Below are positions 10,167-63,269 of a DNA stretch of 64,000 nt, one piece after another (position 1 is the first letter of the stretch; every line of letters begins with the position of its first letter). The notes below the pieces were generated by a model. That model was not told where the DNA came from. It made no database searches and saw only the letters and a program-made list of their open reading frames with translations. The stretch comes from Escherichia phage vB_EcoS_VAH1. The stretch lies in the sequence record MK373792.1; one strand, written 5' to 3'. The position numbers and the translations under genes were made by a program.

Positions 10167-10706
10167 TTACTTGTTAAGCTCTTCTAAATCTGGTATATAT
10201 CCAAGAAACTCCTCAATTAAAGCGTACTCCCCAGCAATCTCCTGTCTAGACTTATTCGCTAAGTCTACTGCCAGAGCTAAGTCTTCATAATTGAAGATTC
10301 CTTTCATACGTTTTCGGCCTGTTTCATCCGTAATTTGAACTCTCCATTTCTGCCTATCTTTAGCCCACATAACATTTGCATATCCGGATTTGGACTTTTT
10401 ATGCTTTTTATTACGACAATTTTGTGGTTTAGATGCAGAACGTAAATTTTTCCATCGGTTATTTTGTGGATTTCTATCTATGTGATCCACAAATTCAGGT
10501 ATATATCCTTCCATATATAGGAAGGCCCATCTATGGGCTCCCTGCCTCTCCCCTTCCACCATTATCATTATGTAATCATTGTTGTACAGGGTTCCAGCTT
10601 CCATTCCCCTCTTTACATACTGATTATTACCATCTATCTTCCAGGTAAACACACCCGTTTCCGGGTTATAATCTAGTAATTCCTTTAATCTTTCTTGTGT
10701 TATCAC
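10167..10706 (-). CDS. HNH homing endonuclease (HNH_3/AP2-type)
   Basis: Paralog of 6316..6852; GTG start. Confidence 0.75.
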   Translation of the reverse strand: MITQERLKELLDYNPETGVFTWKIDGNNQYVKRGMEAGTLYNNDYIMIMVEGERQGAHRWAFLYMEGYIPEFVDHIDRNPQNNRWKNLRSASKPQNCRNKKHKKSKSGYANVMWAKDRQKWRVQITDETGRKRMKGIFNYEDLALAVDLANKSRQEIAGEYALIEEFLGYIPDLEELNK

Positions 10707-11676: not shown

Positions 11677-12090
11677 TTAAACTAGTTCGACATGACCGCC
11701 ATCATAGGTACCACGTTTTATTTCATCGTGATAGTCTCCCGAAGCATTCCAATCAGCACCAAAACGAAGTTTAATGCCTAGCTCTTTACCAGCTTGTTCA
11801 AAAGCCTTTTTAACTGCCCAAAATGCTTCTAAGTCATTCCAGTCAATTTTGCCATTAATATATGGAGCAAAATCGATAGCATCCCCAGTAATATGTTTGC
11901 TTTTACTAGGATCTTTTAGAAATGAAGTACCATTAGCAATGTTCTGGGCACTTTGTGCTACTGTACGAATACCTTGCACGATTGTGAAATCGTACGGAGA
12001 TAATTCTAAAGCCCTACGAGCTACTTTTTGTAGCTCGGGCTTAACGGTAGCTAATTGTTTTTCGCTATTTTTACCAAATTTAAAACTCAT
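11677..12090 (-). CDS. lys: endolysin, zinc L-alanyl-D-glutamate peptidase (M15 family)
   Basis: 137 aa; HITGDAIDF and DGGHVE zinc-ligand motifs as in T5-type endolysin. Confidence 0.8.
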   Translation of the reverse strand: MSFKFGKNSEKQLATVKPELQKVARRALELSPYDFTIVQGIRTVAQSAQNIANGTSFLKDPSKSKHITGDAIDFAPYINGKIDWNDLEAFWAVKKAFEQAGKELGIKLRFGADWNASGDYHDEIKRGTYDGGHVELV

Positions 12091-12392
12091 ATTGACCTAC
12101 CTAAAGATCTCTGTTGTGGGGAACAGAGCTTTGCTAAATATTCCTTGAACTGTTCAGAATCGGCTGTATCTACCGGATTATCTTTCCAAGCAATACCAAT
12201 GTACCCAGCATAGATATTTTTTAGATTGAAGTATGGACAAGTGTATATGTAATTAAAAGTAACGTTTTTAAACGCAGGTATATTTAACCCCATATATTTA
12301 TTTACTCTTACACTTAAATCCGATGCGTAGTTAAAGCCCTCTAAATGACGTCTGTATAATTCAGACGTTTTATTTACCGCTTTATCGGCCAA
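12087..12392 (-). CDS. hypothetical protein
   Basis: 101-aa ORF overlapping lys start. Confidence 0.4.
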   Translation of the reverse strand: MADKAVNKTSELYRRHLEGFNYASDLSVRVNKYMGLNIPAFKNVTFNYIYTCPYFNLKNIYAGYIGIAWKDNPVDTADSEQFKEYLAKLCSPQQRSLGRSI

Positions 12393-12472
12393 GTCAGCCC
12401 TATCTAATTGCGCATTACTTTCCCATGCAATAATATTGGAATAATCATTGATAGCATCTGGTTTATACTTGA

Positions 12473-12796
12473 CTACAAAACAGCATCTGCACCCGTCTGA
12501 GAGAAGAGAACCATGCTCTTTTCCCTCGCCACATTAGGGAAGTTATCTATCCTCTGGGTTTGTAAATCCTGTAAAACTGCAGACGTGGAAAAAGTCTTTA
12601 AGAATGACATCACTTCACTAGTATTACTAACAAATAAGAAAATAATGACAGCAACTAAGATAGTTAGCAGACGTTTAAGAAGCGATGCTGGGTCTTTCGC
12701 TTCTTGGAGCAGTACTGTTAATAATTGTAAGAACTTTTCCAATTTGTAACCTCCTCTAACCAGTACCATTATACTAATTTTGGAGGAAAATTTCAA
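12473..12796 (-). CDS. membrane protein (holin candidate)
   Basis: Single TM LLTILVAVIIFLFV, upstream of endolysin. Confidence 0.35.
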   Translation of the reverse strand: MKFSSKISIMVLVRGGYKLEKFLQLLTVLLQEAKDPASLLKRLLTILVAVIIFLFVSNTSEVMSFLKTFSTSAVLQDLQTQRIDNFPNVAREKSMVLFSQTGADAVL

Positions 12797-12898: not shown

Positions 12899-13497
12899 TT
12901 ACTCTTCGTTGTGCTCCTCGGATTGAGGTAACTGCGTTTTATTATATTGCTCAGATCGATATTTTGCCAAGATTTCAATACGTTTATGGATTTCCTTGCT
13001 ATCTAGATAGATATTTTTGTTGTCTTTTACCATCTCGTCGATTTCATCTATTGAGAAGAACGGATAGTAGACATCTAGCATCATATCTTCTACGAACTTG
13101 TTGTAAGATTCATAGGCTTTCTTGATTTCTTGACCTTTCTCACAGAACCCACCAGAGAACGTATGTCCCATTAGCGTAGCATGTGGATGTACTACCCATC
13201 CATGACAAGATAGGAAAATTGTGCAGTAAGCAGAAGCACTAGGACCAATCAGGTGTCCTATAACTGTTCCACGGCAATTAGCAATTAAGTTAGATAACTG
13301 TGCAGCGGTATCAACATAGCCACCAGGGCCATTAATCATCAGATTAATTTCGTCGTCCTCATTTGCCTGCATAAGTACCATTGATAAATCACGGTATTCA
13401 TCCGGCGGACCAAGTTCTTCATCAAAGAAAAAGGTATACTCGTTAGATTGGCGAATGGAGTGAAACAGGTTAGTCTTTTCTTTTTTTTATTAGTCAT
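12899..13497 (-). CDS. ClpP-like serine peptidase (S14), reading frame interrupted at an A8 run
   Basis: INGPGGYVD, GPSASAYC, HPHATLMGHTFSGG resemble ClpP; ATG with AAGGA RBS at 13495-13497 is in a different frame from the domain (from 13486 down). Confidence 0.6.
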
Positions 13498-13509: not shown

Positions 13510-14261
13510 TTATCCAACTAGTGGTTCTAGCTCTAAGTCACAGAAGTTATACACTTCTAGTTTAAGGTTATTGATACCATCGAATTTATTAACTAATTCG
13601 TGAGTAATATATTTTGCAGGAATACCACTTTCAGATGGATGATCTGATTTAATAGTGAACTTCTGCTCAGCGGGCACTACATTTACTAGTAAAGAATCCA
13701 TATCTAAATGGTTCGTTTCTCTGAGTAACTCTCCTTCATTGGGGAATCTCACATCTGTTATTACGGCGACATCTGGGTCGTCTTTAGCGATGGATTGCTC
13801 CAGAATTATGAGCCAAATGCGTTCATGTACCAGCTGCCTTCCTAGCTCTGTTCCTACGAGCTGTAACATTTTTCTCGGAGAAATAAATAAACTATAGAGT
13901 CCGTCTTCTTTATTCTCTGAGATAAGTTGTTGAGGATTAAGATATTTTTCCTCAAAAATCGGCCAAACGTACGAGAAGTCTTCAAACTTATCGATACCGT
14001 ATTTAAACCATACGTCTCTAGCTCGCTCCAATTGAGATTGTGTGACCGTAAACCATTGGTCAATCTCTTTCCCCTGCGCTCTCCTAGAAACTCTGGAGTT
14101 ACACCGAGGATTACGGATGCAAGTTCATAAACGGGCTTAGCAAAACTGTAACGACGGGGTAAACGCGTTGGATACGTGTCATTACACCAATCGATAATTA
14201 ATTTTGCAACAGTGTCTTTTCCAGAACCAGCCTCACCATGCAGACCTACTAATACTGACAT
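13510..14261 (-). CDS. deoxynucleoside monophosphate kinase, split into two overlapping frames
   Basis: N-part (track 13854..14261) has Walker A GEAGSGKDT; C-part (track 13510..14031) has ITDVRFPNE and SDHPSESGIP as in T4 gp1. Confidence 0.6.
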
Positions 14262-27630: not shown

Positions 27631-27704
27631 TGGCACACCCACGGAGAATTGAACTCCGATTCTCAGATTGAAATCCTGATGTCCTAGCCATTAGACGATA
27701 GGTG
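27631..27704 (-). tRNA. tRNA-Glu (anticodon TTC)
   Basis: Arm TCAGG-ATTTCAA-TCTGA, T-arm CGGAG-TTCAATT-CTCCG. Confidence 0.55.
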
Positions 27705-27713
27705 CATTAAATT

Positions 27714-29398: not shown

Positions 29399-29476
29399 TG
29401 GTGGCTCCCCGAGGATTCGAACCTACGTACCTTCCAGTTATGAGCTGGGTGCTCATACCATATGAGCTTGAGAACC
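29399..29476 (-). tRNA. tRNA-Met type (anticodon CAT); third CAT tRNA, could be the Ile2 (lysidine) species
   Basis: D-arm GCTC...GAGC, arm CCCAG-CTCATAA-CTGG, T-arm GTAGG-TTCGAAT-CCTCG. Confidence 0.55.
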
Positions 29477-29482
29477 AGAATT

Positions 29483-29571
29483 TGGCGGAAGAAGTGGGAA
29501 TCGAACCCACAAGGCTATATTTCAAACCGACAGATTAGCAATCTGCTGCAATACCGTTATGCTATTCTTCC
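29483..29571 (-). tRNA. tRNA-Ser (anticodon GCT), type II
   Basis: Perfect acceptor GGAAGAA/TTCTTCC, arm GCAGA-TTGCTAA-TCTGT, long variable arm. Confidence 0.6.
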
Positions 29572-29592
29572 GAATTTATAAGATATATTATA

Positions 29593-30162
29593 TTAGAAAT
29601 TTAGCTTCATGGCAAGAAAATTTTTCAAGTTTTCGGTAGACATCTCATCCACATCTATAGGAGAAACAAACCCATTTAATTGTCTAGCAAACTTTTCACC
29701 AGCAGGATCATTATCCCCAACAGCTACCAATTTAAAAGGTAGTAATTTCAATTGCTTTAACAATGCTTTTCCGGGGGAAGAACCCAACATTGCCAGGGCT
29801 GGATAACCAGCGTTATGTAACGCAACTGCCTTAAATACAGATTCAGCAATCAATACTACTTTTTCATCTCCATTGAGAGTTTCTAGTCCCCATACACACT
29901 GTGTAGTAGAATAAGTAAAATATCTAGCTTCAAGGGGGCACTTACCATGACCTTTTGGAGCAGAAGGATTATAAGTCTGATAGCCTCTCAACATCCCAGA
30001 GAAGTCATACAATGGGACTGTTAGCCATCCTTCCGGGCTTAACCAGCAATGATATTTATCTGTATCAAACCCTCTAGATAAGAGATGTTCTGTTAGTTCA
30101 TCAACAGTCATACTAGATTCCTCTCTCAAATTTATAAATATATTATACAGAGAATTTAGCAT
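29593..30162 (-). CDS. stand-alone Toprim-domain protein
   Basis: VVLIAESVFKAVALHNAGYPALAMLGS...KLVAVGDNDPAGEKFA matches DnaG-type Toprim; no zinc finger or helicase part. Confidence 0.5.
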   Translation of the reverse strand: MLNSLYNIFINLREESSMTVDELTEHLLSRGFDTDKYHCWLSPEGWLTVPLYDFSGMLRGYQTYNPSAPKGHGKCPLEARYFTYSTTQCVWGLETLNGDEKVVLIAESVFKAVALHNAGYPALAMLGSSPGKALLKQLKLLPFKLVAVGDNDPAGEKFARQLNGFVSPIDVDEMSTENLKNFLAMKLNF

Positions 30163-30280
30163 TCAAGCAATTGAATTTTTTAACTTTTTAGAGGAAAATC
30201 ACAGGATGCTTAAGGGTAGCAGGTAAGTGGTCAGGACCGAAATTTGTGACCCCACTAAAAATCTGGGGGCAATTTTTAAA

Positions 30281-30320
30281 GACCCCTTGACATTTTCGCT
30301 GGGGTAGTGTAAAGTATATG
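30281..30320 (+). promoter_or_regulatory. sigma70-like promoter for the plus-strand island
   Basis: TTGACA at ~30281, ~17-18 nt spacer, TGn + TAAAGT; AGGAGG RBS before ATG at 30368. Confidence 0.5.
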
Positions 30321-30367
30321 TTATGGATGAGTGATCAAAGAGACACACATTTTCTATATACTAGGAG

Positions 30368-31360
30368 GTGTCAAAAATGACAGAAGAAGTAGCTAAGAGT
30401 CCTGAGACCGTCGCTAGCGTTGCAGCAGAACTGCACCGTCACGAGGAATCAGATAAGAAAAAGTGGGAGAAGGTCAGAGCCTACGAAGAAAAACATCGTG
30501 AACACGATGATGAAGAAGATGACGATGAGCATTGTCATAAATATGGAAAACATAAAATGCAAGAACCAGTAAACGTATTTACTAGTGGCTTCCCTGGCCT
30601 ACTTGGTGGTTACCCAGCAAACGCAAGTGCTTTCGGTGGCGAAGGTATGGGACTATTCGGAGCTATCCTAATCGGTGCTCTATTAACAGGCGGGTTCGGT
30701 GGTTTCGGTGGATTCGGTGGACGTGGTGTAGTTGGTGATGGTACCGCAGTTGATGCAGTACTTCAGAACCAAGATACCGCTAGTATTCTAGCAGCTATTA
30801 ACACTACTCGTACAGAAGCTAACCAGGGTACTGGAGCTGTTTTAAGCGCAGTTAACAATGGTTTTAGCCAGACATCCCAAAACCAGAGCCGTGATACTCA
30901 GTCTGTACTAACTACGATCTATGGTACAGGTGCTAATCTGTCTAATCAGATCTGCCAGGAAACTCGCAACGTTATTCAGGGTCAGTTCGATCTTTCTCGC
31001 CAGATTGATCAATCTTTCGCAGCTAACCAGATAGCTCGTGCACAAGATAAGTTTGATTCTGCACAGATCGCTTTCCAGCAGACTTTACAAACTAATAACC
31101 AGTTTGCCGCTGTTCAGGCTCAGATGTGTGCTAACCAGAACTCTCTGGAACGTCAGATCGCTGAATGTTGCTGTGAACTTCAGACTGCGATCGCTGGTGT
31201 AACTACTGCGCGTATTCAGGATGAGTTAGATGCATGTCGCCTACGTGAAGCAATCGCTGCGGGTAACGGTGCTAACGGTCAGGTAATTAATCAAATCGCT
31301 GTAAGTCTTGGTGCTATCACTCAGACTCTGGCTGGTCTGCAGGCTAAACTGCCGGCTTAA
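30368..31360 (+). CDS. acidic/His-rich N-domain + glycine-zipper TM segment + Gln/Asn/Ala-rich helical C-domain protein; function unknown
   Basis: DDEEDDDEH; GLFGAILIGALLTGGFGGFGGFGG; Q/N/T-rich tail with CCC cluster; codon usage unlike neighbours. Confidence 0.55.
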   Translation: MSKMTEEVAKSPETVASVAAELHRHEESDKKKWEKVRAYEEKHREHDDEEDDDEHCHKYGKHKMQEPVNVFTSGFPGLLGGYPANASAFGGEGMGLFGAILIGALLTGGFGGFGGFGGRGVVGDGTAVDAVLQNQDTASILAAINTTRTEANQGTGAVLSAVNNGFSQTSQNQSRDTQSVLTTIYGTGANLSNQICQETRNVIQGQFDLSRQIDQSFAANQIARAQDKFDSAQIAFQQTLQTNNQFAAVQAQMCANQNSLERQIAECCCELQTAIAGVTTARIQDELDACRLREAIAAGNGANGQVINQIAVSLGAITQTLAGLQAKLPA

Positions 31361-31381
31361 TATTAAGGGGAGGAGCCCATT

Positions 31382-31798
31382 ATGAGTAAATATGGTTTTG
31401 TAAATAACGGACTTAATCAAAGTATGGGCTCCCAGCAGCCCATTCCGGGTCTGGATAACCCCTACTTACAACAATTGCAACAGCGTTTAGCAGAAGCGCA
31501 ACAGATGCAGCAACAACTCCAGCAAAACCCTGGAAGTGTGAGTCCTATGCAAATGATGCAGCAAATGAGCGGGCAGTCGCAAATGCCTCAACAAATGCAG
31601 CAACAGGTGCCGCAGCAGCAAGCTCAGCAGCAAACCCAACAACCGCAGGTTTCTGCGGAAGGACAGGCAGTACTAGCCCTTTTCGAAGACTTCGCAAAGA
31701 CAGAGGATGGTAAGCAGCTTGTATCACTTATGGGTAAGTTTAATAGCTTCTGCCAAAGCCAGGTTGCAAAAGCTCAAAATAGTGGTAATAACTCCTAA
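31382..31798 (+). CDS. Gln/Met-rich low-complexity (prion-like) protein
   Basis: QQLQQRLAEAQQMQQQLQQNP...MQMMQQMSGQSQMPQQMQQQVPQQQAQQQTQQ; GGAGG RBS. Confidence 0.5.
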   Translation: MSKYGFVNNGLNQSMGSQQPIPGLDNPYLQQLQQRLAEAQQMQQQLQQNPGSVSPMQMMQQMSGQSQMPQQMQQQVPQQQAQQQTQQPQVSAEGQAVLALFEDFAKTEDGKQLVSLMGKFNSFCQSQVAKAQNSGNNS

Positions 31799-31807
31799 GG
31801 AGGAATT

Positions 31808-32002
31808 ATGTGTTGCAGAAAATCTGTTTCGTGCTGCCCAATGCCTGTAGCACGTTGTTGCTCTCCAGCAATGTTTACGCAAATACCGGCGTTCAATCCG
31901 TTTGCCTTTAAGCCTACTCTTATCCTGCCCCCTAGAGTAGATTTTCAGTCAAGATTGGCCTCCCGTATGGGTGGTTGCTGTAATAAGAGTATATGGTTCT
32001 GA
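31808..32002 (+). CDS. small Cys-rich protein (CC pairs)
   Basis: MCCRKSVSCCPMPVARCCSP...GGCCNK; AGGAGG RBS. Confidence 0.35.
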   Translation: MCCRKSVSCCPMPVARCCSPAMFTQIPAFNPFAFKPTLILPPRVDFQSRLASRMGGCCNKSIWF

Positions 32003-32018
32003 AGAACCAAACAATAAA

Positions 32019-32053
32019 GCCCCTAAGTCTTTCGACTAGGGGCTTTTCTTTTA
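32019..32053 (+). terminator. rho-independent terminator closing the plus-strand island
   Basis: GCCCCTAAGTC...GACTAGGGGC hairpin followed by TTTTCTTTT. Confidence 0.6.
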
Positions 32054-32060
32054 TCTTAAA

Positions 32061-32097
32061 TACAGAAAAGCCCTGCGCTCTCCAGGAAACGCAGGGC
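32061..32097 (-). terminator. rho-independent terminator for the SPFH gene (convergent)
   Basis: GCCCTGCG...CGCAGGGC 8-bp stem with T-run on the minus strand. Confidence 0.6.
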
Positions 32098-32122
32098 TTA
32101 TTTCAGATGTTACATGCGGGTA

Positions 32123-33070
32123 TTATTTATTACGCATATCCATAATCATTTGGCCATCATAGCCAGTGCCAACCACAGTCTGCGGTACACCACCTTGGTA
32201 TTTCTGAGCACGAATCATTTCAACTTCCAGTTGCTTCCAGCGAATCATCTCAGGAGTAATGGTACGTTGCAACGCGGCGTTAGCTTCAGCTTCTTTCTTA
32301 GCTGCGTACAGTTTGGCATCTGCGTCACGCTCATTGGCAATAGCTTGGTTATTACGAGCTTCGCGATCTGCTTCTGCTTGTTTAACCTTCTGCTGTGCTT
32401 CTTGTTCAACACGAGCCAGTTCAGCTTTCGCAGCATTAACTTGCTCTTCACGAACTTTGGTATTCTGTACCTGTTCCATGATTACCGGTGGCAAAGTAAT
32501 ATCCTGAAGGAATACCTGCTTAACTGTATAACCATATGGGCGTGCATACTCTTCAACTTCCTGTTGAATTGCAGTTTGCAATTGAGCCTGAATTTTAGCA
32601 TCAAACAAATCTTGTGCTTTAGGTACAGACTTACCAAACTCACGAATAGTAGACAGTAATTTTTCAGTTACATATTTATCTAGTGCTTGATCCTGGGTGC
32701 CTGCGTTAATACGGTTAATCGGTGCCTTAGAACCATCAAATTGTAACATAACAGTCAGGTCAACAGTGGATTTAAACTTATCTTGGCTAGGAACCTGAAG
32801 TTTATCTAATTTTACAGCAATATCTTTTGTACTAAAAGTATCGAAAGATGCAAATGGGTTTACAAGATGGAAACCAGGTAATACTGGGTTAGGATCTACT
32901 TTACCTAGAAATGTTTGGGTTTTAACCGTACCATCAGAAACAATAGTATATGAATTAAAAGCTAGGATTAAACCTGCTAAACCAACTACAGCACCAATAC
33001 CCCAACGTTTAATAGTGCGAATTACTTTTTGCTCAGAAGTCAGTTCTTTCATATTTTTAGTATTAAACAT
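32123..33070 (-). CDS. SPFH/Band-7 (prohibitin/stomatin/HflKC-like) membrane protein
   Basis: N-terminal TM (WGIGAVVGLAGLILAF), SPFH-like core, long Ala/Glu/Gln coiled-coil tail. Confidence 0.7.
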   Translation of the reverse strand: MFNTKNMKELTSEQKVIRTIKRWGIGAVVGLAGLILAFNSYTIVSDGTVKTQTFLGKVDPNPVLPGFHLVNPFASFDTFSTKDIAVKLDKLQVPSQDKFKSTVDLTVMLQFDGSKAPINRINAGTQDQALDKYVTEKLLSTIREFGKSVPKAQDLFDAKIQAQLQTAIQQEVEEYARPYGYTVKQVFLQDITLPPVIMEQVQNTKVREEQVNAAKAELARVEQEAQQKVKQAEADREARNNQAIANERDADAKLYAAKKEAEANAALQRTITPEMIRWKQLEVEMIRAQKYQGGVPQTVVGTGYDGQMIMDMRNK

Positions 33071-33104
33071 ATATTTCCTTTGTTTTAGTTACAGTTAATA
33101 AAAT

Positions 33105-33179
33105 TGGCCGAGGTGACAGGATTCGAACCTGCATAAAGGAATTTAGAAGACTCCTGCCTCTCCCTTAGACTACACCCCG
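33105..33179 (-). tRNA. tRNA-Arg (anticodon TCT)
   Basis: Acceptor CGGGGTG/CACCTCG, arm GGAGT-CTTCTAA-ATTCC, T-arm GCAGG-TTCGAAT-CCTGT. Confidence 0.55.
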
Positions 33180-33669
33180 TTTAAGTATTTTTAAGAACTC
33201 TCGTAAAAACTCTTAAAAATACAGACGATACCGGGAGAGTCATAAGTCTCACTCATTAAGTATTTCAAGACAAAATACAGTAACGTCTATTATTTTCCAG
33301 TTTAAGTCAGGGTGACTTAGTGGTTATGTCCTGCGGTATATTGAGGACTCGGTTAGGCTTTGGGGTCATGACTTCCCGCCTTTTGCTGCTACTCAACAGG
33401 AGTTATCGCGAATTACCTGTGCTATTGTGCACCATTAGTGACATCTCTCATGTCAGCATTTCCCACTTTGTGGATAGCTTGAAAAACTACTCCGATATGG
33501 AGAAAGAACTTCACTATCCTAGAATACCTTCTAAAGTTCTTCTTTAGCCTGGACATAGTTAAATCGTAATAAAACTATTCAGCAGACTGGTTGGTTAGTC
33601 TGGAACCAACTACCGCGTGGTTTAGGCAGTGCGCAACTAACCTCGGAAGCTTTTACGTTAAAAGCATCA

Positions 33670-33745
33670 GTTATCCAGTTCTTACCGACCGTAGGATTCG
33701 AACCTACATCTTCCACCAGTTACGGCTTGATAATACCAATTATAC
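33670..33745 (-). tRNA. tRNA-like element, identity unresolved
   Basis: T-arm GTAGG-TTCGAAT-CCTAC; acceptor GCCGTCC/GGTCGGT with one mismatch; no clean anticodon arm; no CCA. Confidence 0.3.
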
Positions 33746-46731: not shown

Positions 46732-48544
46732 ATTAATTGAGAATTGCAAAGGTCTGCTCACTCTAACTGCGGATAAGGACTTACAGCATAATAATGCTAA
46801 TAAGCCTAGTGAGATGTTCCATACTCAAAGAGACTTATTAGCTGGGGAAATTAACAAGTATTTAGTATCGCAAGAATTACCTAAACACCTGTTAGACGCA
46901 CATAATCTAGGTAAAATACACATTCATGACATGGACTACAGAGCACAAGGGTACACCAACTGTTGCTTAGTAGATCTAGGCGGTATGCTGAAAAATGGCA
47001 CTAAAATTGGTAACGCAAATATTGAAACTCCTAAATCCATAACTACTGCATGCGCGATTACTGCTCAGATTATTGCTCAAGTATCGGGTGCTCAGTATGG
47101 TGGCACTTCTATTGATCGTATCGATGAGGTTTTAGCCCCCTATGTCAGAAAGTCTTATGATAAGCACCTGGGTCGTGGTCTACGTTGGCTCAAGGATGAA
47201 AGGAAAGCTGCTGTATATGCTACTGAACTTACTGAAAAAGAGTGTTATGATGCATTCCAAGCCCTAGAGTATGAAACTAATTCATTATTTAACTCTAACG
47301 GACAGACTCCTTTTGTTACGCTTGGCTTTGGGCTAGGACAGGGGTGGGAGGAAAGGATGATTCAGAAAGCCATCCTCCAAAACCGTATTAAAGGTTTAGG
47401 TGCTGCTGAGTCAACCCCTATCTTCCCTAAACTAGTATTCTCAGTTAAAGAAGGGTTAAATAAAAATCCAGGCGATCCTAACTATGATATAAAACAGCTA
47501 GCACTTGAGTGTTCTGCTACCCGTATGTACCCGGACTATTTAAGTTACGAGAAAGTTGTAGCTGTTACTGGTGATTTTAAAGCACCTATGGGTTGTCGTA
47601 GTTTTTTATCCGCTATTCCTTCTGGGGAAACTGCCGGCCGTAATAATCTGGGTGTAGTGTCTATTAATCTACCTATGGTTGCTGCTGAGGCAGATGGGGT
47701 TTTTGAAGATTTCTGGGATATTCTGGACAAATATGTGGATGAGGCTTTTGAAGCTCATGATTTTTTCTTGGATAGACTTAAGAAAGTGAAGGCTAAACAA
47801 GCCCCTATTCTTTATATGCACGGTGGTTTTGGTGTGCGTTTAGATGGGGAAGAGTATGTATGGCCAATTTTTGAGGGTAGATCTTCTGTATCTCTTGGGT
47901 ATATTGGGGTCTATGAGATGTGCCAAATAATGTTTAGTTTACCGCAGACTCATAGGGACTGTATTGAATTTACAGAGGAAGTTCTTACTCACCTAAAAAA
48001 TCGTTGCGAAGTTAAAGCTAATGAGACTAATCTTGGGTTTAGCTTGTATGCTACTCCTAGTGAGTCTCTATGTAATCGCTTTAATAAACTACTGGAACGT
48101 AGGTTCCCTGAGTATTCTTGGCTAACAGATAAAGGCTATCTCACTAATAGTCATCATTTGGACGTAAGGGAGAAGGTAGCTCCGGATACTAAATTTGAGT
48201 ATGAAGCTCATTTCACCAAAATAGCTAATGGTGGTAATATATCGTTTGTGGAACTACCACAAATGAAAAAGTTCCATAAAGCTCTTGAATACGTAGTAGA
48301 TAAGGGATTAGAATGTAGCCATTATATTGGTGTTAATATACCAATTGATGAGTGCTTCAACTGTGGGTATATGGGTGAATCTGTTGCCTCTGAACGTGGG
48401 TTTGTATGTCCAAGTTGTGGGTCTGAAGAAATAGAGGTTACACGTAGGGTTTGCGGGTACCTGGGATCCCCGGGCAGTAGGCCTTTCAATTCTGGGAAAC
48501 AAAAAGAAGTGCTTGGTAGAGTAAAACACTTAAATCTTAAGTAA
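46718..48544 (+). CDS. nrdD: anaerobic ribonucleoside-triphosphate reductase (class III)
   Basis: C-terminal CFNCGY...CPSCGS zinc ribbon and RVCGY glycyl-radical motif. Confidence 0.88.
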   Translation: MTENELIENCKGLLTLTADKDLQHNNANKPSEMFHTQRDLLAGEINKYLVSQELPKHLLDAHNLGKIHIHDMDYRAQGYTNCCLVDLGGMLKNGTKIGNANIETPKSITTACAITAQIIAQVSGAQYGGTSIDRIDEVLAPYVRKSYDKHLGRGLRWLKDERKAAVYATELTEKECYDAFQALEYETNSLFNSNGQTPFVTLGFGLGQGWEERMIQKAILQNRIKGLGAAESTPIFPKLVFSVKEGLNKNPGDPNYDIKQLALECSATRMYPDYLSYEKVVAVTGDFKAPMGCRSFLSAIPSGETAGRNNLGVVSINLPMVAAEADGVFEDFWDILDKYVDEAFEAHDFFLDRLKKVKAKQAPILYMHGGFGVRLDGEEYVWPIFEGRSSVSLGYIGVYEMCQIMFSLPQTHRDCIEFTEEVLTHLKNRCEVKANETNLGFSLYATPSESLCNRFNKLLERRFPEYSWLTDKGYLTNSHHLDVREKVAPDTKFEYEAHFTKIANGGNISFVELPQMKKFHKALEYVVDKGLECSHYIGVNIPIDECFNCGYMGESVASERGFVCPSCGSEEIEVTRRVCGYLGSPGSRPFNSGKQKEVLGRVKHLNLK

Positions 48545-51547: not shown

Positions 51548-52054
51548 TTGTCGTTGACAATTTGGATGGATTATGTAATAATATATGTATTGGAGGTGAG
51601 GATGTCATTCACACAGCAAGAACTTTTAGATAACTTCCGATATGAAGATGGTAAGTTATTTAGAACTACAGGAAGAAATGCAGGGAAAGAATGTTGTGTC
51701 TCTACTGGTAACGGATATTATCGTATATCTCTAGGGAATAGGACTATGCTTCGGCATAGAGCAATATTTTTAATGCATCATGGATACTTACCTGATTTAG
51801 TAGATCATGTGAATACTGTAAAAGGTGATGATCGTATTGAAAATCTTAGAGAGCAGACAGTATCCGGTAATCTAAGAAATATCAAATATAAGAAAGGAAT
51901 GCATGTTTACCCTTCTGGTAGTAATAACTGGCAAGTAGTATTTACTATTAACCGTAAACGTATAGTTAAAGGAACATATGACAACTATGAGGTTGCATGT
52001 TCTATGGCCAAGATGTTTAGAGGTCAACTATACGGTAGGGAATCAATCCAGTAA
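51548..52054 (+). CDS. HNH homing endonuclease (HNH_3/AP2-type)
   Basis: LRHRAIFLMHHGYLPDLVDHVN...N..NL; own promoter with two TTGACA elements. Confidence 0.7.
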   Translation: MSLTIWMDYVIIYVLEVRMSFTQQELLDNFRYEDGKLFRTTGRNAGKECCVSTGNGYYRISLGNRTMLRHRAIFLMHHGYLPDLVDHVNTVKGDDRIENLREQTVSGNLRNIKYKKGMHVYPSGSNNWQVVFTINRKRIVKGTYDNYEVACSMAKMFRGQLYGRESIQ

Positions 52055-52511
52055 AATTTCATTTGCAAGGGAGTATTATTTTATAGTATAATATTCCCAT
52101 AAATGAGAGACATTAGTAAAAATTGATTTTGCTAATTTTTCTTGTTTACAATCCGCGATACGGAACAGTTAGGCTGCCCCATTAAGGGTTGTTTTAACTG
52201 TTACGTGTTAGTTTTTAAACAAATAGTTAATAGAATACTTAGCGATCTGCGTCCCGTAGGAACCCTGGTAAGGCCTCGAAGCAACCTAGATAGAGGTGGT
52301 TGTGAAGTGAGACGGGAGGAGTGAAAAACTCCGAGACGTGATTCTGTAAGTTATATTGCATCTAGTATGAGCTAGTATATGAAGCATTAGGTGAGCAAAT
52401 CTGGCTTAGCGGCCATCCTCAAGGATTTGTGCGGTATAGCAAAGCAGCAGCGCAGCGTGAGAGTGGAAGTTGCCACCCCACTTCAGTATTTGAGATTAAT
52501 TTGTTGAGAAA

Positions 52512-55596: not shown

Positions 55597-56168
55597 TGTT
55601 TATAAGAATTCCCGAATTTCCTGACTATGCAGTGAATGAAAATGGAGAGGTGTACTCTTTTCTCTCCTACAAGTTTCTTACTCCAGGTCAAAATACTGCT
55701 GGGTACTTACAAGTTAATTTAATGAAGGACGGCACCCCTATAAATGTGAGGGTGCATAGGTTAGTAGCTTATTGTTTTGGGCTACTTCCTGGGTTAGAAT
55801 CAGAATTGGTAGTAGACCATATAAACGATGATAAGTTAGATCCTAGACTATCTAACTTGCAGGTATTAACCTACAGAGCTAATGCAATAAAATTTCATAA
55901 TAAAAATTGGAGAGAACATCCAGATTTCCTAGTAGAAATTAAGAAATTAGAAAGTATGGGCATAACTAAAGCAGCTGCATCTTATAGGCGCAGGGCTATG
56001 TTTAAATATATTGTGGCTGTTCCCTCTAGTGATACTCTAACCTTAGAATTAATAGAATCTACATATCAGAAAACCAATTCTTGGGGAAAAACTGCTAGGG
56101 CTCTAGGCTTTAACAGTGCTCCTGCTATTAGATACAGGTATAATAAGCTGAAAGCAGCTTCTTTATAA
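55596..56168 (+). CDS. HNH homing endonuclease (NUMOD4/HNH_3-type)
   Basis: IPEFPDYAVNENGEVYS...GYLQVNL...HRLVAYCF...VDHINDDKLD..SNLQVL. Confidence 0.7.
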   Translation: MFIRIPEFPDYAVNENGEVYSFLSYKFLTPGQNTAGYLQVNLMKDGTPINVRVHRLVAYCFGLLPGLESELVVDHINDDKLDPRLSNLQVLTYRANAIKFHNKNWREHPDFLVEIKKLESMGITKAAASYRRRAMFKYIVAVPSSDTLTLELIESTYQKTNSWGKTARALGFNSAPAIRYRYNKLKAASL

Positions 56169-56174
56169 ATTTTC

Positions 56175-56234
56175 TTGCTTTACGATGAATTTTTCTGTAT
56201 AATAGATTCATAAATTTGAGAGAGGAGTTTAAAT
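56175..56234 (+). promoter_or_regulatory. T5 P_N25-like early promoter and leader
   Basis: TTGCTT(56175-56180) - 17 nt - TATAAT(56198-56203), leader ATAAATTTGAGAGAGGAGTTTAAAT then ATG; matches the classic T5 N25 promoter as recalled. Confidence 0.8.
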
Positions 56235-56939
56235 ATGGCTGGTTCTCGCAGAAAGAAACATATCCATGAAATCCCGGATGAAGTCTTTAAAAAAGTTATA
56301 GAGCATCTGGAGAACGGTGGTACTAAGAAAGCAGCATGTGAAATGCTCGGCGTATCATCCAACCCAACTATGGAAAGGATGATAGAAGAGTGGCAAGACC
56401 GCCAGATCCAAGTTGCCGAGATGAAGAAAAAGAAACGTGGTACACTCATTGAAGGTATTGAGTTGGCCAACGTTATTGAACAGTATCTATCTGGTGATTC
56501 TTTTGAAGAGATTGCCGATCGTAATTACCGCTCTGTAGCAATGGTTAAATCTGTTCTGGAACGCTATGGTGCTCTGCTTCGTTTGAACGATATTGTAGAT
56601 CCATTGAATCCACCAATTATTCCTGATGATGCTGTAGCAGAAGAATTTGAGGTAGGTGAGCTTGTTTGGGTTCCTGGATACCAGTGTATCGGTGAAATCA
56701 AAAAAGCAATGGATAACCCTGTTGGTTGTTACCGTGTATGGCTTCTATCAGAAGGCAAACAACAGAATGTTCATTATATGAATTATGAATTAGCTTCTGT
56801 AAAGCATTTGGAAAAGCTAGGGGTAGACGTAAAATCTCTGGGGTATAAATGGTCCCGGGAAGAAGTTATCACACTGATTAACGAAGCTGTTAAGGCCGCC
56901 TTGAAACTTGATAAAGAAAAAGGAAAACGCCGTGAGTAG
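56235..56939 (+). CDS. early protein with HTH-like N-terminal region
   Basis: KKAACEMLGVSSNPTMERMIEEW helix-turn-helix-like; directly behind P_N25-like promoter. Confidence 0.5.
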   Translation: MAGSRRKKHIHEIPDEVFKKVIEHLENGGTKKAACEMLGVSSNPTMERMIEEWQDRQIQVAEMKKKKRGTLIEGIELANVIEQYLSGDSFEEIADRNYRSVAMVKSVLERYGALLRLNDIVDPLNPPIIPDDAVAEEFEVGELVWVPGYQCIGEIKKAMDNPVGCYRVWLLSEGKQQNVHYMNYELASVKHLEKLGVDVKSLGYKWSREEVITLINEAVKAALKLDKEKGKRRE

Positions 56940-57183
56940 ACTAACTGATTTACTTAAAGATGGGGAAGTAAAAACACTATATCGTAGAAGCTGGGATAAC
57001 GATAATAACGGCTTAGTGTTACTAACTTTAGATGCTGACTCAGATGTAGCTACTCAGCATACCTGGGTAGCCGGTAACTATCCATATAGCGAGGTTGTTT
57101 CATTAACAGTATGCGAAGCTATTGCAGACGATTGGGAGGTTGCCAGCATCGATGATATGCTTGCTGTTGGCCTGGTGGAGTAA
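56908..57183 (+). CDS. hypothetical protein
   Basis: 91-aa ORF. Confidence 0.4.
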   Translation: MIKKKENAVSRLTDLLKDGEVKTLYRRSWDNDNNGLVLLTLDADSDVATQHTWVAGNYPYSEVVSLTVCEAIADDWEVASIDDMLAVGLVE

Positions 57184-57286
57184 CTACTTAAAAATTTCAG
57201 TTGCTTAATCCTACAATTCTTGATATAATATTCTCATAGTTTGAAAGAACTATTCTGTTTAATTCTTAATTAAGGAAATATAAAAT

Positions 57287-57697
57287 ATGACTACTCCAAC
57301 TCAGTGGACTGATGAACTATTCGAAAAAATGTCTTCCGAATACGTTGCTCGTATGGAGCAATTCCCAGAGGATGAACGTCCGAATGTTAGCATGGAAATT
57401 GTTAGCGAAATTGCCCAGGAAAATGGTGTAACTCCGAACGGTTTTCGTATGAAGCTGACTAAAGCAGGTTTGTATATCAAGAAAGCTGCTGGCTCTGCTT
57501 CTAAATCTAGCGCATCTACTGGAGAAAAAGCTTCCGGTGGTTCTCGTACCTCCAAAGCTCAAGCCCATGCCGACCTTCGTTCAGCTTTCTCTGATGCTGG
57601 CTTAGCACCAGATTTTCTGGATGATGCAATTATCGACAAACTGACCGGTAAAGCGGCTGCTCATCTGGCAGAAGCAATCCGAGCTATCACTAAGTAA
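57287..57697 (+). CDS. hypothetical protein
   Basis: 136-aa ORF behind TTGCTT-17-TATAAT promoter at ~57203-57240. Confidence 0.45.
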   Translation: MTTPTQWTDELFEKMSSEYVARMEQFPEDERPNVSMEIVSEIAQENGVTPNGFRMKLTKAGLYIKKAAGSASKSSASTGEKASGGSRTSKAQAHADLRSAFSDAGLAPDFLDDAIIDKLTGKAAAHLAEAIRAITK

Positions 57698-57734
57698 TAT
57701 TTAGATAAATCCACCAACAAAAGGAACTATAGCT

Positions 57735-58031
57735 ATGACTAAAGCTGAAATTATTGCACAGTGCGAAAAATTTGGTGAGTTTTATCTTCATTACGAGAAA
57801 CTTCGTCAGAAAGGAACCACGTACCTTCAGGGTACAATGGAATTTGATCCGGCCCAAGATAAATATCTGGCTGAGCGTATTAAACGTGAACGTATTCGTA
57901 AAGCGAAAGATGATGAAATCCTTGTCTTCTCTCGTACTAATGATAGCTTCCGTTTTATTCCTGTCGAGAAAGTTCGTCGTGTGACTAGCCTCCAATCAGA
58001 GTTAGATCGTGCTTCTCCAGTAGGCCGATAA
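57735..58031 (+). CDS. hypothetical protein
   Basis: 98-aa ORF. Confidence 0.4.
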   Translation: MTKAEIIAQCEKFGEFYLHYEKLRQKGTTYLQGTMEFDPAQDKYLAERIKRERIRKAKDDEILVFSRTNDSFRFIPVEKVRRVTSLQSELDRASPVGR

Positions 58032-58042
58032 GAAAACAATTA

Positions 58043-58066
58043 GCCCCTATATGGGGCTTTTTGTGT
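58043..58066 (+). terminator. rho-independent terminator
   Basis: GCCCC-TATAT-GGGGC hairpin + TTTTTGTG. Confidence 0.6.
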
Positions 58067-58081
58067 ATTTGGGATATGTAA

Positions 58082-58390
58082 ATGAGCGAACAGGTAAATC
58101 AAAACTATGAAGGACACGTTGATGACCAGTCCATCATACTTTGGGAGAAGGAGGGAGAACAAGTAAGATTAACAGTATCTGAATTTCGTGGGAATCTATA
58201 CATGGGTATTCGTTACTGGCTTCTTGATATTAATGATGAATGGTTTCCAACGAAATCTGGCTTCTCTTTTCCTTACACCCTAGAAACAACATCACAGCTT
58301 TTCTATGCGTTTACACAGATTCTTAGCGAATCTGAGGTTTTACATGAAGTACAGAAACGAGCTGAAGAACTCAAAGCCAAGAATGCCTAG
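58082..58390 (+). CDS. hypothetical acidic protein
   Basis: 102-aa ORF. Confidence 0.4.
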   Translation: MSEQVNQNYEGHVDDQSIILWEKEGEQVRLTVSEFRGNLYMGIRYWLLDINDEWFPTKSGFSFPYTLETTSQLFYAFTQILSESEVLHEVQKRAEELKAKNA

Positions 58391-58477
58391 TTCTTGGCTT
58401 TTTCTTTATAAATGTATTTGCTTTCAACTCAGTTTTGTTATATAATATTTATATAAATTAATGAGAGATATAAATAA

Positions 58478-59303
58478 ATGACCAATGTAAAAGAATTTAT
58501 TAAACGCTGTCAAGAAGCATATTATCAAGGTATGTCTTTAATCTCTGATGAGGAATATGATTGCCTAGTAAAACGCTTCCCGTTAGAGGAAGAGATCGGG
58601 CCTAAGGGTGATATTCCACATCTGTATCGTATGTATTCTTTACAGAAAGTTTACTATAACCGTGGAGATAAACCACCATTCAATCCTTTAGGTCAGGTGG
58701 AAACCGATAAGTTAGATGGTTGTGCAATTTCTCTGCTATATATTTAATGGCGAATTTGTTCAAGCACTAACTCGTGGTAATGGTATTCTGGGGAATGATG
58801 TCACAAGCAACGTAAGATTGCTGAACATCCCTAAAAAGATTTCCCAAAAAGTACCTACTCAAATCACTGGTGAAGTTCTAATTACAAAAGAAGTAGAAAA
58901 TAAACGTAACTTTGCCTCTGGTGCTATTAACCTCAAAGATAGTGATGCTTTTGTACAACGTATCGGGGAAGGTGGTTTAATCTTCGTTGCATACGGTATC
59001 CAGTGTTCTGCTGAATCTGTAGGTATTACAGAAGCGTATTTAAAAGATATGCTTTGGCTAGAGAATGAGAACTTCTTAACAGTTGTTATGTGCGTTCCTC
59101 CTTTAAAATGGATTCCGACGGACGGTAAAGTTGTTCGTATTAATGACAACAACAAATTCTTCCGGGAAGGCTGGACTAATAAATTCCCTCGTGGGGCATT
59201 CGCTATTAAAGAGGATGAAGAAGGCGAGATTACAACTCTTACTAAAGTTGAATGGCAGGTAGGGGCTTCTGGTAAAGTTCCAGTTGGTTATTTCGAACCG
59301 TAA
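58478..59303 (+). CDS. lig: NAD-dependent DNA ligase, adenylation part, internally frameshifted (track ORFs 58478..58747 and 58716..59303)
   Basis: KLDG adenylation lysine in first ORF; TRGNGILGNDVTSN and onward in second ORF; junction at CTATATATTTAATGG. Confidence 0.75.
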
Positions 59304-59309
59304 TAATTG

Positions 59310-59453
59310 ATTGATGCCACAATTGTTAAAGCGACTCTTAATAACGTTGATTATATTAACTCTCTCGATCTAGAGATCGGTTGCCAGATTCGAGTGATTC
59401 GTGCTGGTGGTGTAATCCCGTGCATAGTAGAGCGAGTATACGATTATACATAA
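59310..59453 (+). pseudogene. ligase OB-fold remnant, in frame after tandem TAA TAA stops
   Basis: [44 protein letters not shown] matches the LigA OB domain (ATLHN...RAGDVIP) but has no conventional start. Confidence 0.5.
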
Positions 59454-59641
59454 CCCTTTGCTACCCATCTACCGTATCGGAATTATGGTTATTGACATTT
59501 CGCCGCTTAGGTATATATACTATTATCATTCAGTTGAGGGATAGAAAGTTATGGCGAGGGTAAGCAAAGTTAGTTAAAATTGTAGTTGCTAAATGCTTAA
59601 ATACTTGCTATAATATTTATATAAATTGATAAGGAAGAAAT

Positions 59642-60424
59642 TTGATGAAAATCGAAATTCCAACACAATGTCCCTCTTGTGGTTCTAAGCTAGATCTTGT
59701 CAACGGACAATTATTCTGTCGTAATAAGTCCAACTGTCCAGCGCAATCAAGTAAGTTAATTGAGAACTTCTGTACAAAAATGAAGTTAAAGGGCTTTGGC
59801 CCGAAAACTATTGAGAAGCTGGAGCTGACGAAGATTTCAGAACTATTTTACCTAACCGAAGAAGATTTGGTTAGAGCAGTGGGTAGCAAGGTTGCCGCTA
59901 AATTAATTAGCGAATTAAATACTAAAGTTCGCGGAGACATTGACTTTGGTTCAGTTCTCGGTTCTTTAGGAATCCCTCTAATTGGAGAGGTTGCAGCAAA
60001 GAAATTATCCCAAAATTGCACTAGCTTCCACGATGTGAAGGCTGACGGCAAGGCTGGAGAAAACTATAAAGCCTGGCTAAATTCCCCACAAGGCAAGGAT
60101 GTTATCGAATTACCGTGGAAATTCACAACTGGTGTTAAAGGTGCTAAAGCTGAGGTCATCATTACTGATGGTCTAGTAGCCCAACCAAACGGAATAACGG
60201 TATGTATTACCGGATCTTTGCAAGATTTTGCAAATAGAACGGATGCAACAAACTATCTAGAAGGTCTAGGGTATACTGTTAAAAAATCAGTTACCAAAGA
60301 CGTTAAATACCTAATCTGTGAGGATGAATCTAAGCGTTCTTCCTCATCTTATAAGAAAGCCGAAACGAATGGGATAGAAATCCTGTCGATTAAAGAACTA
60401 TTGGAGAAAAATAATAATGTCTAA
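59642..60424 (+). CDS. lig: NAD-dependent DNA ligase, C-terminal part (Zn finger-HhH-BRCT) as a separate ORF
   Basis: CPSCGS...C zinc finger then HhH and BRCT-like regions; own TTGCTA-TATAAT promoter at ~59605-59630. Confidence 0.75.
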   Translation: MMKIEIPTQCPSCGSKLDLVNGQLFCRNKSNCPAQSSKLIENFCTKMKLKGFGPKTIEKLELTKISELFYLTEEDLVRAVGSKVAAKLISELNTKVRGDIDFGSVLGSLGIPLIGEVAAKKLSQNCTSFHDVKADGKAGENYKAWLNSPQGKDVIELPWKFTTGVKGAKAEVIITDGLVAQPNGITVCITGSLQDFANRTDATNYLEGLGYTVKKSVTKDVKYLICEDESKRSSSSYKKAETNGIEILSIKELLEKNNNV

Positions 60425-61184
60425 ACTGAACTGGAACGTAGAAGGTGTAACCGAGTCTCTGAAAGCAAAAGCCACTGCTCTGGGTGTTGCTGTAATCTCT
60501 CAAGAACAAGTAGCTGCTATCGCTGCTGAACTGGCTGCTGAGACTGGCAAAGACGTTACCGCTCGCTCTGTTGGCTCTAAGCTGCGTAAAGAAGGTTTCG
60601 AAGTACAGAAAGCTAACGAAGTACAGAAATCTCCGTGGACTCCTGAGCAGGAAGCTGAACTGGTTGATTTCCTGAACGCTCATGCTGGTCAGTATACCTA
60701 TGCTGAAATCGCTGCTGCTGTAGCTGGTGGTCAGTTCGGTGCTAAACAGGTACAGGGTAAGATCCTGAGTCTGGAAATGACCGCTTCTGTTAAACCAACC
60801 GAAAAAGCTGCTGCTGTTCGTTCCTTCACTCCGGATGAAGAAACTGATTTTGTTAATCAGGTTGTTGCTGGGGCTACTATTGAAGCTATCGCTGCTCACT
60901 TCGGTCGTAATATCAAACAGATCCGTGGTAAAGCTCTGAGTCTGCTTCGTGAAGGTCGTATCGCTGCTATGCCGGTACAGGAAACTTCAAGTGCTAAAAC
61001 TCGTGAAGATCTGCTAGAAGGTCTGGATCTGGTTAACATGACCGTTGCTGAGATCGCTGAGAAAACTGGTAAATCTGAGCGCGGTGTTAAATCTATGCTG
61101 TCTCGTCGTGGTCTGGTTGCTAAGGACTATGATGGTGCCGCTAAGCGTGCTAAACTGGATGCAAAAGCTGCGGCTGCTGAATAA
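60417..61184 (+). CDS. Ala-rich internally repeated protein with strong codon bias, possible abundant DNA-binding protein
   Basis: Internal repeats, high-expression-type codon usage, terminator immediately downstream. Confidence 0.45.
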   Translation: MSKLNWNVEGVTESLKAKATALGVAVISQEQVAAIAAELAAETGKDVTARSVGSKLRKEGFEVQKANEVQKSPWTPEQEAELVDFLNAHAGQYTYAEIAAAVAGGQFGAKQVQGKILSLEMTASVKPTEKAAAVRSFTPDEETDFVNQVVAGATIEAIAAHFGRNIKQIRGKALSLLREGRIAAMPVQETSSAKTREDLLEGLDLVNMTVAEIAEKTGKSERGVKSMLSRRGLVAKDYDGAAKRAKLDAKAAAAE

Positions 61185-61202
61185 TCTGGTAAATTAAACC
61201 TA

Positions 61203-61236
61203 AGGGGAGGGGGCTATGCTCCTTCCCCTTTTTGCA
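61203..61236 (+). terminator. rho-independent terminator
   Basis: GGGGAGGGGG...CCTTCCCCT hairpin + TTTTTG. Confidence 0.6.
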
Positions 61237-62739
61237 TTTAGAAGGCACGAAAGCGTGCAAAGGAGAATGACCTTGTTTAACGTGCAAGCTGTAGTGTTGA
61301 AGATGCTTCTAGCTTCCGAACAGAAGCAAATAGCATTGGAAACATTCTCAAAACTGCATAAAGATCATTTTAATGACGCTTTCTCCTCAATTTACCAAGC
61401 CGTCCAGAATTATTATAAAAAATATAACACAATGCCGTCCATTGACGCACTTATGCTTGAAGCTAATAGGAACGCCCGCCTTTCTCAAGCTCTAGTCGTC
61501 TTAGCTAACACTCAAATTCCAGAAGTGAGCATGGAACAGGCACTTGAAGTCCTAGAGGCCGAATATACACAGGATTTATTCCTGAAGCTTCTAGAAACAG
61601 ACGTGCTTCAAGATTTAACAATGCTGGATCAGGGAGAAATTCTCAACCGAGTTGCCTCCCTTCACTTAAAATTAGAAGAGAAAGTAACGAATACTGGAAA
61701 AGTATTCAACGCAGATAACATGCGTATTTTCCAGAGAGAAGAAGATACCAAACTGAACTTAATCGCTCTTGGTATTTGTAATGAGTTCGACGCTCAAATC
61801 GGTTTAGCTCGCACAGAAACGTTACTGCTTGGTGGTTGGCGTGGTACTGGTAAATCCATTATCTGTTCAAACATACAGGTTCAGCAATATTTGAATGGGG
61901 ATATTGCTCCATACTTCTCAATTGAGATGAAAGAACATGAAGTATTTAGACGTAATCTAGCCATGTTAGCTGGTGTATCAGCATTAGCAATGCGTAATAA
62001 TACTCTAGAAGGTGCAGCTCTGTTGAGATTAGCCAGAACTAGAGCTAGAATGTTTAATGGTGGTGAAGAGCTTTTCGACAACTTCGTTAAACAGTATACA
62101 ATGGCTAAGATGAGTGATTTCTACGATATGGAGAGTAAGCTAATAGAGGGATATGAACTACATACTCCTATGATTATCGTTTATGACCCTGAACTGTCCA
62201 TTACAACAGTTGACGTAGAATTAAATAAATTAGTTGCTAGATATGGTGATAAAGTTACAGTAGCTCTACTTGACTATATTAACCAAACCCGACTTCCAGA
62301 CTCTAAAACCATTGATATGTATGACTGGAAAGAACAGATGGTTGTTAGCTCGTCTTTCAAATCTATCTGCCAGAAACATAACGTGGCTGGTGTAGCTCCT
62401 TACCAGATCGATCAAGATGGTAGAACACGTATGTCAAAGGGTATTCTTGATTCCGCAGATATGGCTGCTAATCTTAATGCTGCAAAAGCTGATAATGGTC
62501 AAGGTGCTATTATGTTTGACTTCGTTAAGACTCGTTCTTCTGATAGCGTGAAGTTTATGCCTAAAATGAACTGGGAAACCTTGCGGATGGATAACACTAC
62601 CAACCTAGCAATGGAAGATATATCTCAAATGGAAGCTGAGTTCATTATCCCTATTGAGAAGGATAAGCCGGCTCAACCTAAACGTGCTAAGAAAGACAAA
62701 ACTGAAAATTCAACAGGTGAACAGGCCAGCGATATATGA
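61216..62739 (+). CDS. DnaB-like replicative helicase (true start probably downstream of the terminator)
   Basis: Walker A GGWRGTGKS, Walker B IIVYDPELS, RecA-like C-domain. Confidence 0.55.
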   Translation: MLLPLFAFRRHESVQRRMTLFNVQAVVLKMLLASEQKQIALETFSKLHKDHFNDAFSSIYQAVQNYYKKYNTMPSIDALMLEANRNARLSQALVVLANTQIPEVSMEQALEVLEAEYTQDLFLKLLETDVLQDLTMLDQGEILNRVASLHLKLEEKVTNTGKVFNADNMRIFQREEDTKLNLIALGICNEFDAQIGLARTETLLLGGWRGTGKSIICSNIQVQQYLNGDIAPYFSIEMKEHEVFRRNLAMLAGVSALAMRNNTLEGAALLRLARTRARMFNGGEELFDNFVKQYTMAKMSDFYDMESKLIEGYELHTPMIIVYDPELSITTVDVELNKLVARYGDKVTVALLDYINQTRLPDSKTIDMYDWKEQMVVSSSFKSICQKHNVAGVAPYQIDQDGRTRMSKGILDSADMAANLNAAKADNGQGAIMFDFVKTRSSDSVKFMPKMNWETLRMDNTTNLAMEDISQMEAEFIIPIEKDKPAQPKRAKKDKTENSTGEQASDI

Positions 62740-63269
62740 TAACACAGGAAAGGCTAAAAGAGTTATTTGATTACTCCCCAGGAACTGGGGAGTTTACTAG
62801 AAAAGTATCTAGAGGTAATCAGAAAGCTGGTAGTATAGCTGGTTCTTTAAGAAAAGATGATTATATATGTATATGGGTAGATGGAAAGCCTTACTATGCG
62901 CATCAACTAGCTTTTCTCTATATGGAAGGTTATTTACCTGAAGAAGTAGACCATATAAACCGTATACGAAGTGATAATCGTTGGGTTAACCTTAAAGATT
63001 CTTCTCACCAAGAGAATAGCAGGAATAAAGCAGCTAAAAGTAAATCAGGGTATATAGGAGTTAGTTGGAATAAACAAAGGCAAAAATGGCAAGTTCAACT
63101 AAGAGATACCAATAAAAAGAAAATATTCGGTGGATATTTTGAGTACCAGAATTTAGAATCAGCCGTAGATAAGATTAATAAGCTACGATTACAATTTCAT
63201 GGGGAAAATGCTATTCAAGAAATATTCGACCCGTCTAATTATCCTGCATTAGAGGAGATAAATTCATGA
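62736..63269 (+). CDS. HNH homing endonuclease (HNH_3/AP2-type)
   Basis: MITQERLKELFDY... paralog of 6316..6852 and 10167..10706. Confidence 0.75.
   Translation: MITQERLKELFDYSPGTGEFTRKVSRGNQKAGSIAGSLRKDDYICIWVDGKPYYAHQLAFLYMEGYLPEEVDHINRIRSDNRWVNLKDSSHQENSRNKAAKSKSGYIGVSWNKQRQKWQVQLRDTNKKKIFGGYFEYQNLESAVDKINKLRLQFHGENAIQEIFDPSNYPALEEINS

Follow-up and report, generated by a model that had tools for sequence, protein, structure and literature searches.

The broken ligA gene of a T5-like Escherichia phage sequence: an ordinary two-gene DNA ligase locus with a probable patch of low-quality sequence

The ligase locus in the 64,000-nucleotide stretch of Escherichia phage vB_EcoS_VAH1 (MK373792.1) that was analysed here, called the window, is a DNA ligase of the ordinary T5-like kind, encoded by two genes. 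Its first gene is orthologous to the T5-type ligA, yet the sequence as given does not encode subunit A. The lesions, chiefly indels, are private to this one sequence and lie close together; beneath them ligA is otherwise a normal gene under selection. We infer a technical origin for the lesions, that is, the three-way break of ligA is probably a patch of low-quality sequence that is not present in the phage. The initial annotation had described the ligase as being encoded by four or more separate pieces. The four ORFs (a–d) and the sequences quoted for them are indeed there, but as biology the description is not supported: the extra breaks are private and fall within a burst of ten indels in 772 bp.

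The 2.1 kb around the locus matched 445 phage records, all of them Tequintavirus or other T5-like phages, with Escherichia phage Bf23 (97.5%) and then T5 (96.9%) as the best matches. One record with at least 99% identity was also reported, but it is absent among the full-coverage matches; most likely it aligns over a short stretch only. Judged by its sequence, the window is from a T5-like phage that is ca 97% identical to Bf23 and T5. In both of these phages the ligase is annotated as two genes, ligA and ligB (T5.116/T5.117, AAS77162/AAS77163 in T5; WLW40722/WLW40723 in Bf23), with promoters between them, and the same split is present in about 430 relatives. The gene order at the locus agrees with T5 and Bf23, the ligase lying between the D3 / PC4-like genes and D5 at ca 97% nucleotide identity, and so do the position of the split, between the OB fold and the Zn finger, and the two promoters in the spacer. 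The break between pieces c and d is thus the known, normal ligA/ligB split, and it is the only normal one among the breaks in the window. Both subunits appear in published work, for T5 in PMC3632103 and for phage Stitch in PMC4319617.

The two-gene arrangement is also found in a solved structure. The PDB entries 9hu3 and 9i5i contain a two-chain phage NAD+ ligase of the same two-subunit architecture, with a chain A of 339 aa, named DNA ligase (NAD(+)), and a chain B of 248 aa, named DNA ligase subunit B. The match between T5 LigA and chain A of 9hu3/9i5i spans the full length (E = 8e-104), and so does that between the window LigB and chain B of 9hu3 (E = 5e-80). The enzyme in these entries is a more distant homologue, with many substitutions and several short gaps, and its subunit A is one continuous chain. 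No paper describing these entries was found in the literature library searched. The E. coli LigA (PDB 2owo) has the same domain order and the KxDG motif, but it is a single polypeptide. Residues 214-320 of T5 LigA align to residues 284-390 of the E. coli enzyme, which is the OB fold, and residues 3-122 of the window LigB align to residues 402-529, that is, the Zn finger and HhH. These alignments place the natural split at the boundary between OB fold and Zn finger, near residue 400 of E. coli LigA; the N-terminal region of the phage enzyme is shorter. The LigA and LigB chains would assemble into one enzyme. The remark in the initial annotation that a two-gene ligase may be normal for T5-like phages is therefore well founded, being supported by the T5 and Bf23 annotation, the literature and the two-chain structure. 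Its further point, that the additional frameshift and the stop-interrupted OB fold go beyond this norm, is also correct.

We now turn to the individual parts of the locus, all of which are on the plus strand. An early promoter region upstream of ligA can be placed at 58398..58472 by homology to T5, whose annotated promoter (L002 1499-1573) aligns there with zero differences. Intact T5 LigA carries the adenylation domain and the OB fold on one chain (Pfam), and a gene for subunit A is expected to encode both, with the KxDG motif in the first, in a single ORF of some 323 codons. As written, ligA instead consists of ORFs of 89, 195 and 48 aa. Piece a (58478..58747) covers LigA codons 1-89 and ends in ...KLDGCAISLLYI*. 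Its 89 aa are 100% identical to residues 1-89 of Bf23 LigA and include motif I, K78-L-D-G, with the KxDG lysine K78; alone, the piece gives no Pfam match above threshold. The TAA at which it ends is made by the frameshift. As the initial annotation had noted, the junction between a and b is a one-base frame change; the alignment to the relatives identifies it as an inserted T (+1 T at 58745) relative to every one of them, which turns ATT AAT into ATT TAA T at 58743..58745.

Piece b (58746..59303) continues in the +1 frame with LigA codons 90-275, comprising what remains of the adenylation domain and the first part of the OB fold. Formally the ORF is 58716..59303, opening at the ATG at 58716, and the ligase sequence picks up again at NGEFVQALTRGNGILGNDVT. 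It matches part of the Pfam DNA_ligase_aden family (E = 4.7e-16). Within it, a compensating pair of a lost A at 59089 and a gained A at 59108 (59089..59108) garbles six codons, NVRSFF becoming MCVPPL, and an in-frame deletion of three nucleotides (AAC, site 59278..59279, counted below as −3 at 59279) removes one Thr, GKVTPVG becoming GKVPVG.

At 59301..59312, GTA ATT ATT GAT, encoding V-I-I-D, has become TAA TAA TTG ATT by loss of a G at 59301, gain of a T at 59312 and a change of ATT to ATA. The resulting in-frame tandem TAA TAA was reported in the initial annotation; it is present, but at 59301-59306 and not at ca 59304-59309, a difference of 3 nt. The OB fold does continue beyond the stops in the same frame, as had been proposed: piece c (59307..59453, LigA codons 278-323) contains the rest of it and matches part of Pfam DNA_ligase_OB (E = 3.2e-11). 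A lost A at 59447, in the original stop codon, gives piece c a 2-aa extension, the end changing from YD* to YDYT*.

The ligA-ligB spacer follows at 59454..59644. In the relatives this spacer is ca 200 nt long and has annotated promoters, which in T5 are P-K28b and P-K28a; the window has two promoter-like sites, 59492-59521 and 59586-59614, matching these two, respectively. The spacer also has three private indels, −5 at 59487, −1 at 59501 and +2 at 59516. Piece d is then, as had been stated, a separate gene preceded by the two promoter-like sites: the ORF 59642..60424 contains the intact ligB of 259 aa (59645..60424, from the ATG at 59645), which encodes a separate subunit B with Zn finger, HhH and BRCT. 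The protein is 98.5% identical to Bf23 LigB, its gene has neither indels nor stops, and Pfam matches the BRCT and HHH domains. Subunit B would be transcribed from its own promoters. We also observed in ligB, at 60257-60331, a cluster of eight positions inside 75 nt that are substituted in comparison with both T5 and Bf23, with no indel; it is probably a small recombination patch common to other relatives.

Compared with Bf23 and T5, there are thus ten small indels between 58745 and 59516. The seven in ligA (+1 T, −1 A, +1 A, −3, −1 G, +1 T, −1 A) divide the gene into three ORFs and scramble six codons, and three more are in the downstream spacer. Several of these lesions are additional to those in the initial annotation, namely the 59089/59108 pair, the deletion at 59279, the 59301/59312 origin of TAATAA, the loss at 59447 and the three spacer indels. 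They are very unevenly distributed. In a block of 6.6 kb (56167-62739) that is 97.6% identical to Bf23, all 10 indels are inside 772 bp (P = 3.8e-8), and the 5.8 kb surrounding the patch have zero. ligA is free of lesions over its first 267 nt; at the other end, the patch extends 65 nt beyond the stop of the gene and then ends abruptly. Private substitutions show a different pattern: a panel of 20 relatives gives only 3 in the patch (59305, 59318 and 59474), whereas the flanking 4.3 kb have 23 substitutions that are private with respect to T5 and Bf23, and 0 indels (Fisher P = 1e-4 compared to the patch).

Gains and losses alternate among the six single-base events in ligA, + − + − + − (P = 0.03), which keeps the gene close to its original length (net −3), and in two of the −1/+1 pairs the events are separated by just 11 and 19 nt. 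Length changes of short runs account for about 7 of the 10 indels. When the indels are removed, a ligA of 323 codons is obtained that is close to that of Bf23 and T5 apart from the TAATAA patch, the differences from the two being mostly synonymous. Of its changes that are private with respect to T5 and Bf23, 7 are synonymous and 2 non-synonymous (P = 6e-4 under neutrality), and this synonymous excess means that ligA has been under purifying selection until essentially now.

The lesions are confined to this one sequence. All 20 relatives that align over at least 1000 nt show the same ten gap openings relative to the window, one of them having 11. The two main lesions were also examined singly, by BLAST of 76-nt windows against 432-439 records of T5-like phages. 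The +1 T insertion occurs in 0 of 439 phage records, the best match (98.7%) amounting to one gap, and the TAATAA allele in 0 of 432, with a best match of 92.5%. Exact-pattern scans for these diagnostic alleles gave no match, for TAATAA in IMG/VR, JGI metagenomes and GTDB genomes and for the +1 T in IMG/VR and metagenomes. Exact protein look-ups of pieces a and b, LigB and the D6 helicase likewise turned up no independent copy. As a control, the wild-type pattern at the TAATAA site was found in 20 IMG/VR contigs, which demonstrates that such scans are able to detect ligA.

To see how the rest of the window behaves, 100 annotated Bf23 genes were translated and compared with it. About 80 of the orthologues are intact, and three conserved genes besides ligA are broken, all on the minus strand. 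The first is the holin gene (12090-12742), in which residues 1-88 and 84-218 are in separate frames and a run A5 is shortened to A4 at 12476-12481. In the gene of the Clp-like protease (12899-13497) the frame is lost after about codon 5, a C between T runs being deleted at 13482. The third is the dNMP kinase gene dnk (13510-14261), with residues 1-67 and 63-250 in separate frames and C5 shortened to C4 at 14070. A fourth one-base deletion, at 11616, is intergenic. All four deletions are missing from both Bf23 and T5, and at the holin and dnk sites the one-base gap persists even in the best of the full-length matches from 442 relatives (98.7%). A lytic phage with a frameshifted holin and a frameshifted dNMP kinase is unlikely as an isolate, which indicates that the sequence has base-count errors in at least one other place. 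The tRNA-Glu gene at 27631-27705 (minus strand) differs from Bf23 by −1, −1 and +2 bases, net zero, and ARAGORN still calls it as tRNA-Glu(ttc).

Low-quality sequence accounts best for these observations. In this scenario, a base caller or assembler would have dropped and added single bases across 58745-59516. Several points speak in its favour. All ten indels are private, and 10 private indels compared to 3 private substitutions is an unnatural spectrum. The gene beneath them was under purifying selection until essentially now, and the alternation of gains and losses nearly preserves its length. The patch disregards gene boundaries, the private, indel-dominated differences clustering across the end of ligA into the spacer, and ligB has no lesion. 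Homopolymer-associated deletions, likewise private, also disrupt three further conserved genes of the window. It is important to point out that the errors are uneven along the window, most of the 64 kb being free of frameshifts. This counts against the explanation and means that it needs a special local cause, for example thin coverage, a stretch bridged by one read or a region that is hard to clone. The −3 and −5 deletions also count against it, as they do not have the form of typical homopolymer errors. Moreover, if the phage ligase were really lost, the host LigA might in principle compensate.

The main alternative is that the lesions are real. It is possible, but unlikely in our judgement, that the lineage very recently lost ligA by a frameshift and then acquired further slippage mutations. 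The accompanying proposal, that the orphan ligB was kept while the NAD+-dependent LigA of the host joins the Okazaki fragments and seals the nicks, we regard as equally doubtful. The host does have a ligase of the same class, the NAD+-dependent LigA, and the sequence as given is unable to encode the phage enzyme. Furthermore, no lesion precedes the first frameshift, which fits a gene released from selection, and the seven run-length changes are of the type made by replication slippage. However, the spectrum of indels and substitutions is the reverse of that of normal decay, and the substitutions that are present are overwhelmingly synonymous. In a gradually decaying pseudogene substitutions should outnumber indels and the synonymous excess should be lost; the opposite is found for both. 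It also counts against a real loss that ligB is without decay and that the patch runs on into the spacer and stops abruptly, and none of ca 435 relatives has any of the lesions tested. Finally, the frameshifts in holin and dNMP kinase are hard to square with a plaque-forming phage. The alignment to T5-like ligases that had been proposed as a check in the initial annotation thus points to an artefact and, with lower likelihood, to a very recent pseudogene.

Another option considered was that the DNA acquired the lesions while it was being cloned or propagated for sequencing, for example because inactivating mutations were selected in shotgun clones whose phage inserts were toxic or carried strong promoters, and that the phage itself lacks them. 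Holins are typically toxic when cloned, and a holin is among the broken genes. T5 early promoters are very strong and difficult to clone, and the patch adjoins the two promoters that match P-K28a and P-K28b of T5. One lesion is sufficient to inactivate a clone, however, and selection for inactivation does not predict ten of them in 772 bp. We consider this origin very improbable.

A working four-piece ligase, finally, is essentially excluded. Such an enzyme would have to be made either by a +1 frameshift at AUU UAA U together with read-through of UAA UAA, or by assembly of the fragments. The stop directly after a U-rich codon bears a loose likeness to the +1 site of prfB, and a TTG is found immediately after the tandem stops. 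However, the shift site is not conserved, all relatives having an unbroken ATT AAT GGC, and no Shine-Dalgarno-like stimulator was found upstream of it. None of the 21 tRNAs in the window is a suppressor reading UAA, so that both a conserved site and a decoding device are missing for programmed recoding. A tandem UAA UAA is a strong terminator, and its presence at 59301-59306 counts against read-through. As to separate fragments, a search for promoter-like sites before pieces b or c gave none, and translational coupling at the TAATG overlap between a and b was rejected, since the ATG there opens the wrong frame. In addition, the first break is 11 residues past the catalytic K78, within the nucleotidyltransferase core. 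Six later codons are scrambled as well.

We have also considered a mobile-element insertion as the cause of the breaks. The relatives SP15, DT571/2, HdH2 and others are ca 270 bp longer across the ligase locus. In SP15 (AP019559) the extra DNA (L026 378-650) corresponds to a hypothetical ORF of 90 aa that immediately precedes ligA and is not part of the ligA-ligB spacer; the insertion is outside the gene, and this candidate was rejected.

Some further differences from Bf23 were observed elsewhere in the window. Between the D6 helicase and the primase, at 62736-63269 (plus strand), there is a 177-aa ORF with about 60% identity to the Bf23 HNH endonuclease HegE. Since the helicase and primase genes overlap directly in Bf23, this ORF looks like a homing-endonuclease insertion. 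More HegE-like matches are at 6319-6855 and 10170-10700, and a weaker one, possibly degenerate, at 51653-52120. A gap between the BLAST blocks at 29436-33693 corresponds to ca 4.2 kb without a Bf23 counterpart, with tRNA-Ser(gct) and tRNA-Arg(tct) inside. The anaerobic ribonucleotide reductase NrdD (46733-48541, plus strand) has 61% protein identity to Bf23 NrdD, compared to 95-99% for its neighbours, and this divergence at the sequence level suggests that a mosaic replacement of the allele may have taken place.

The two-gene ligase is real, but it is already known from annotation, from the literature and from a solved structure. If the breaks in ligA are artefacts, their relevance is one of quality control only: the genome would have to be corrected at about 14 sites, and annotation pipelines should neither call three ligA fragments nor split the holin and dnk genes. 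If the lesions would instead be real, a T5-like phage would dispense with the catalytic subunit of its own ligase, which would be a modest result, and an unusual, indel-biased mutational process acting on a patch of 0.8 kb would be indicated.
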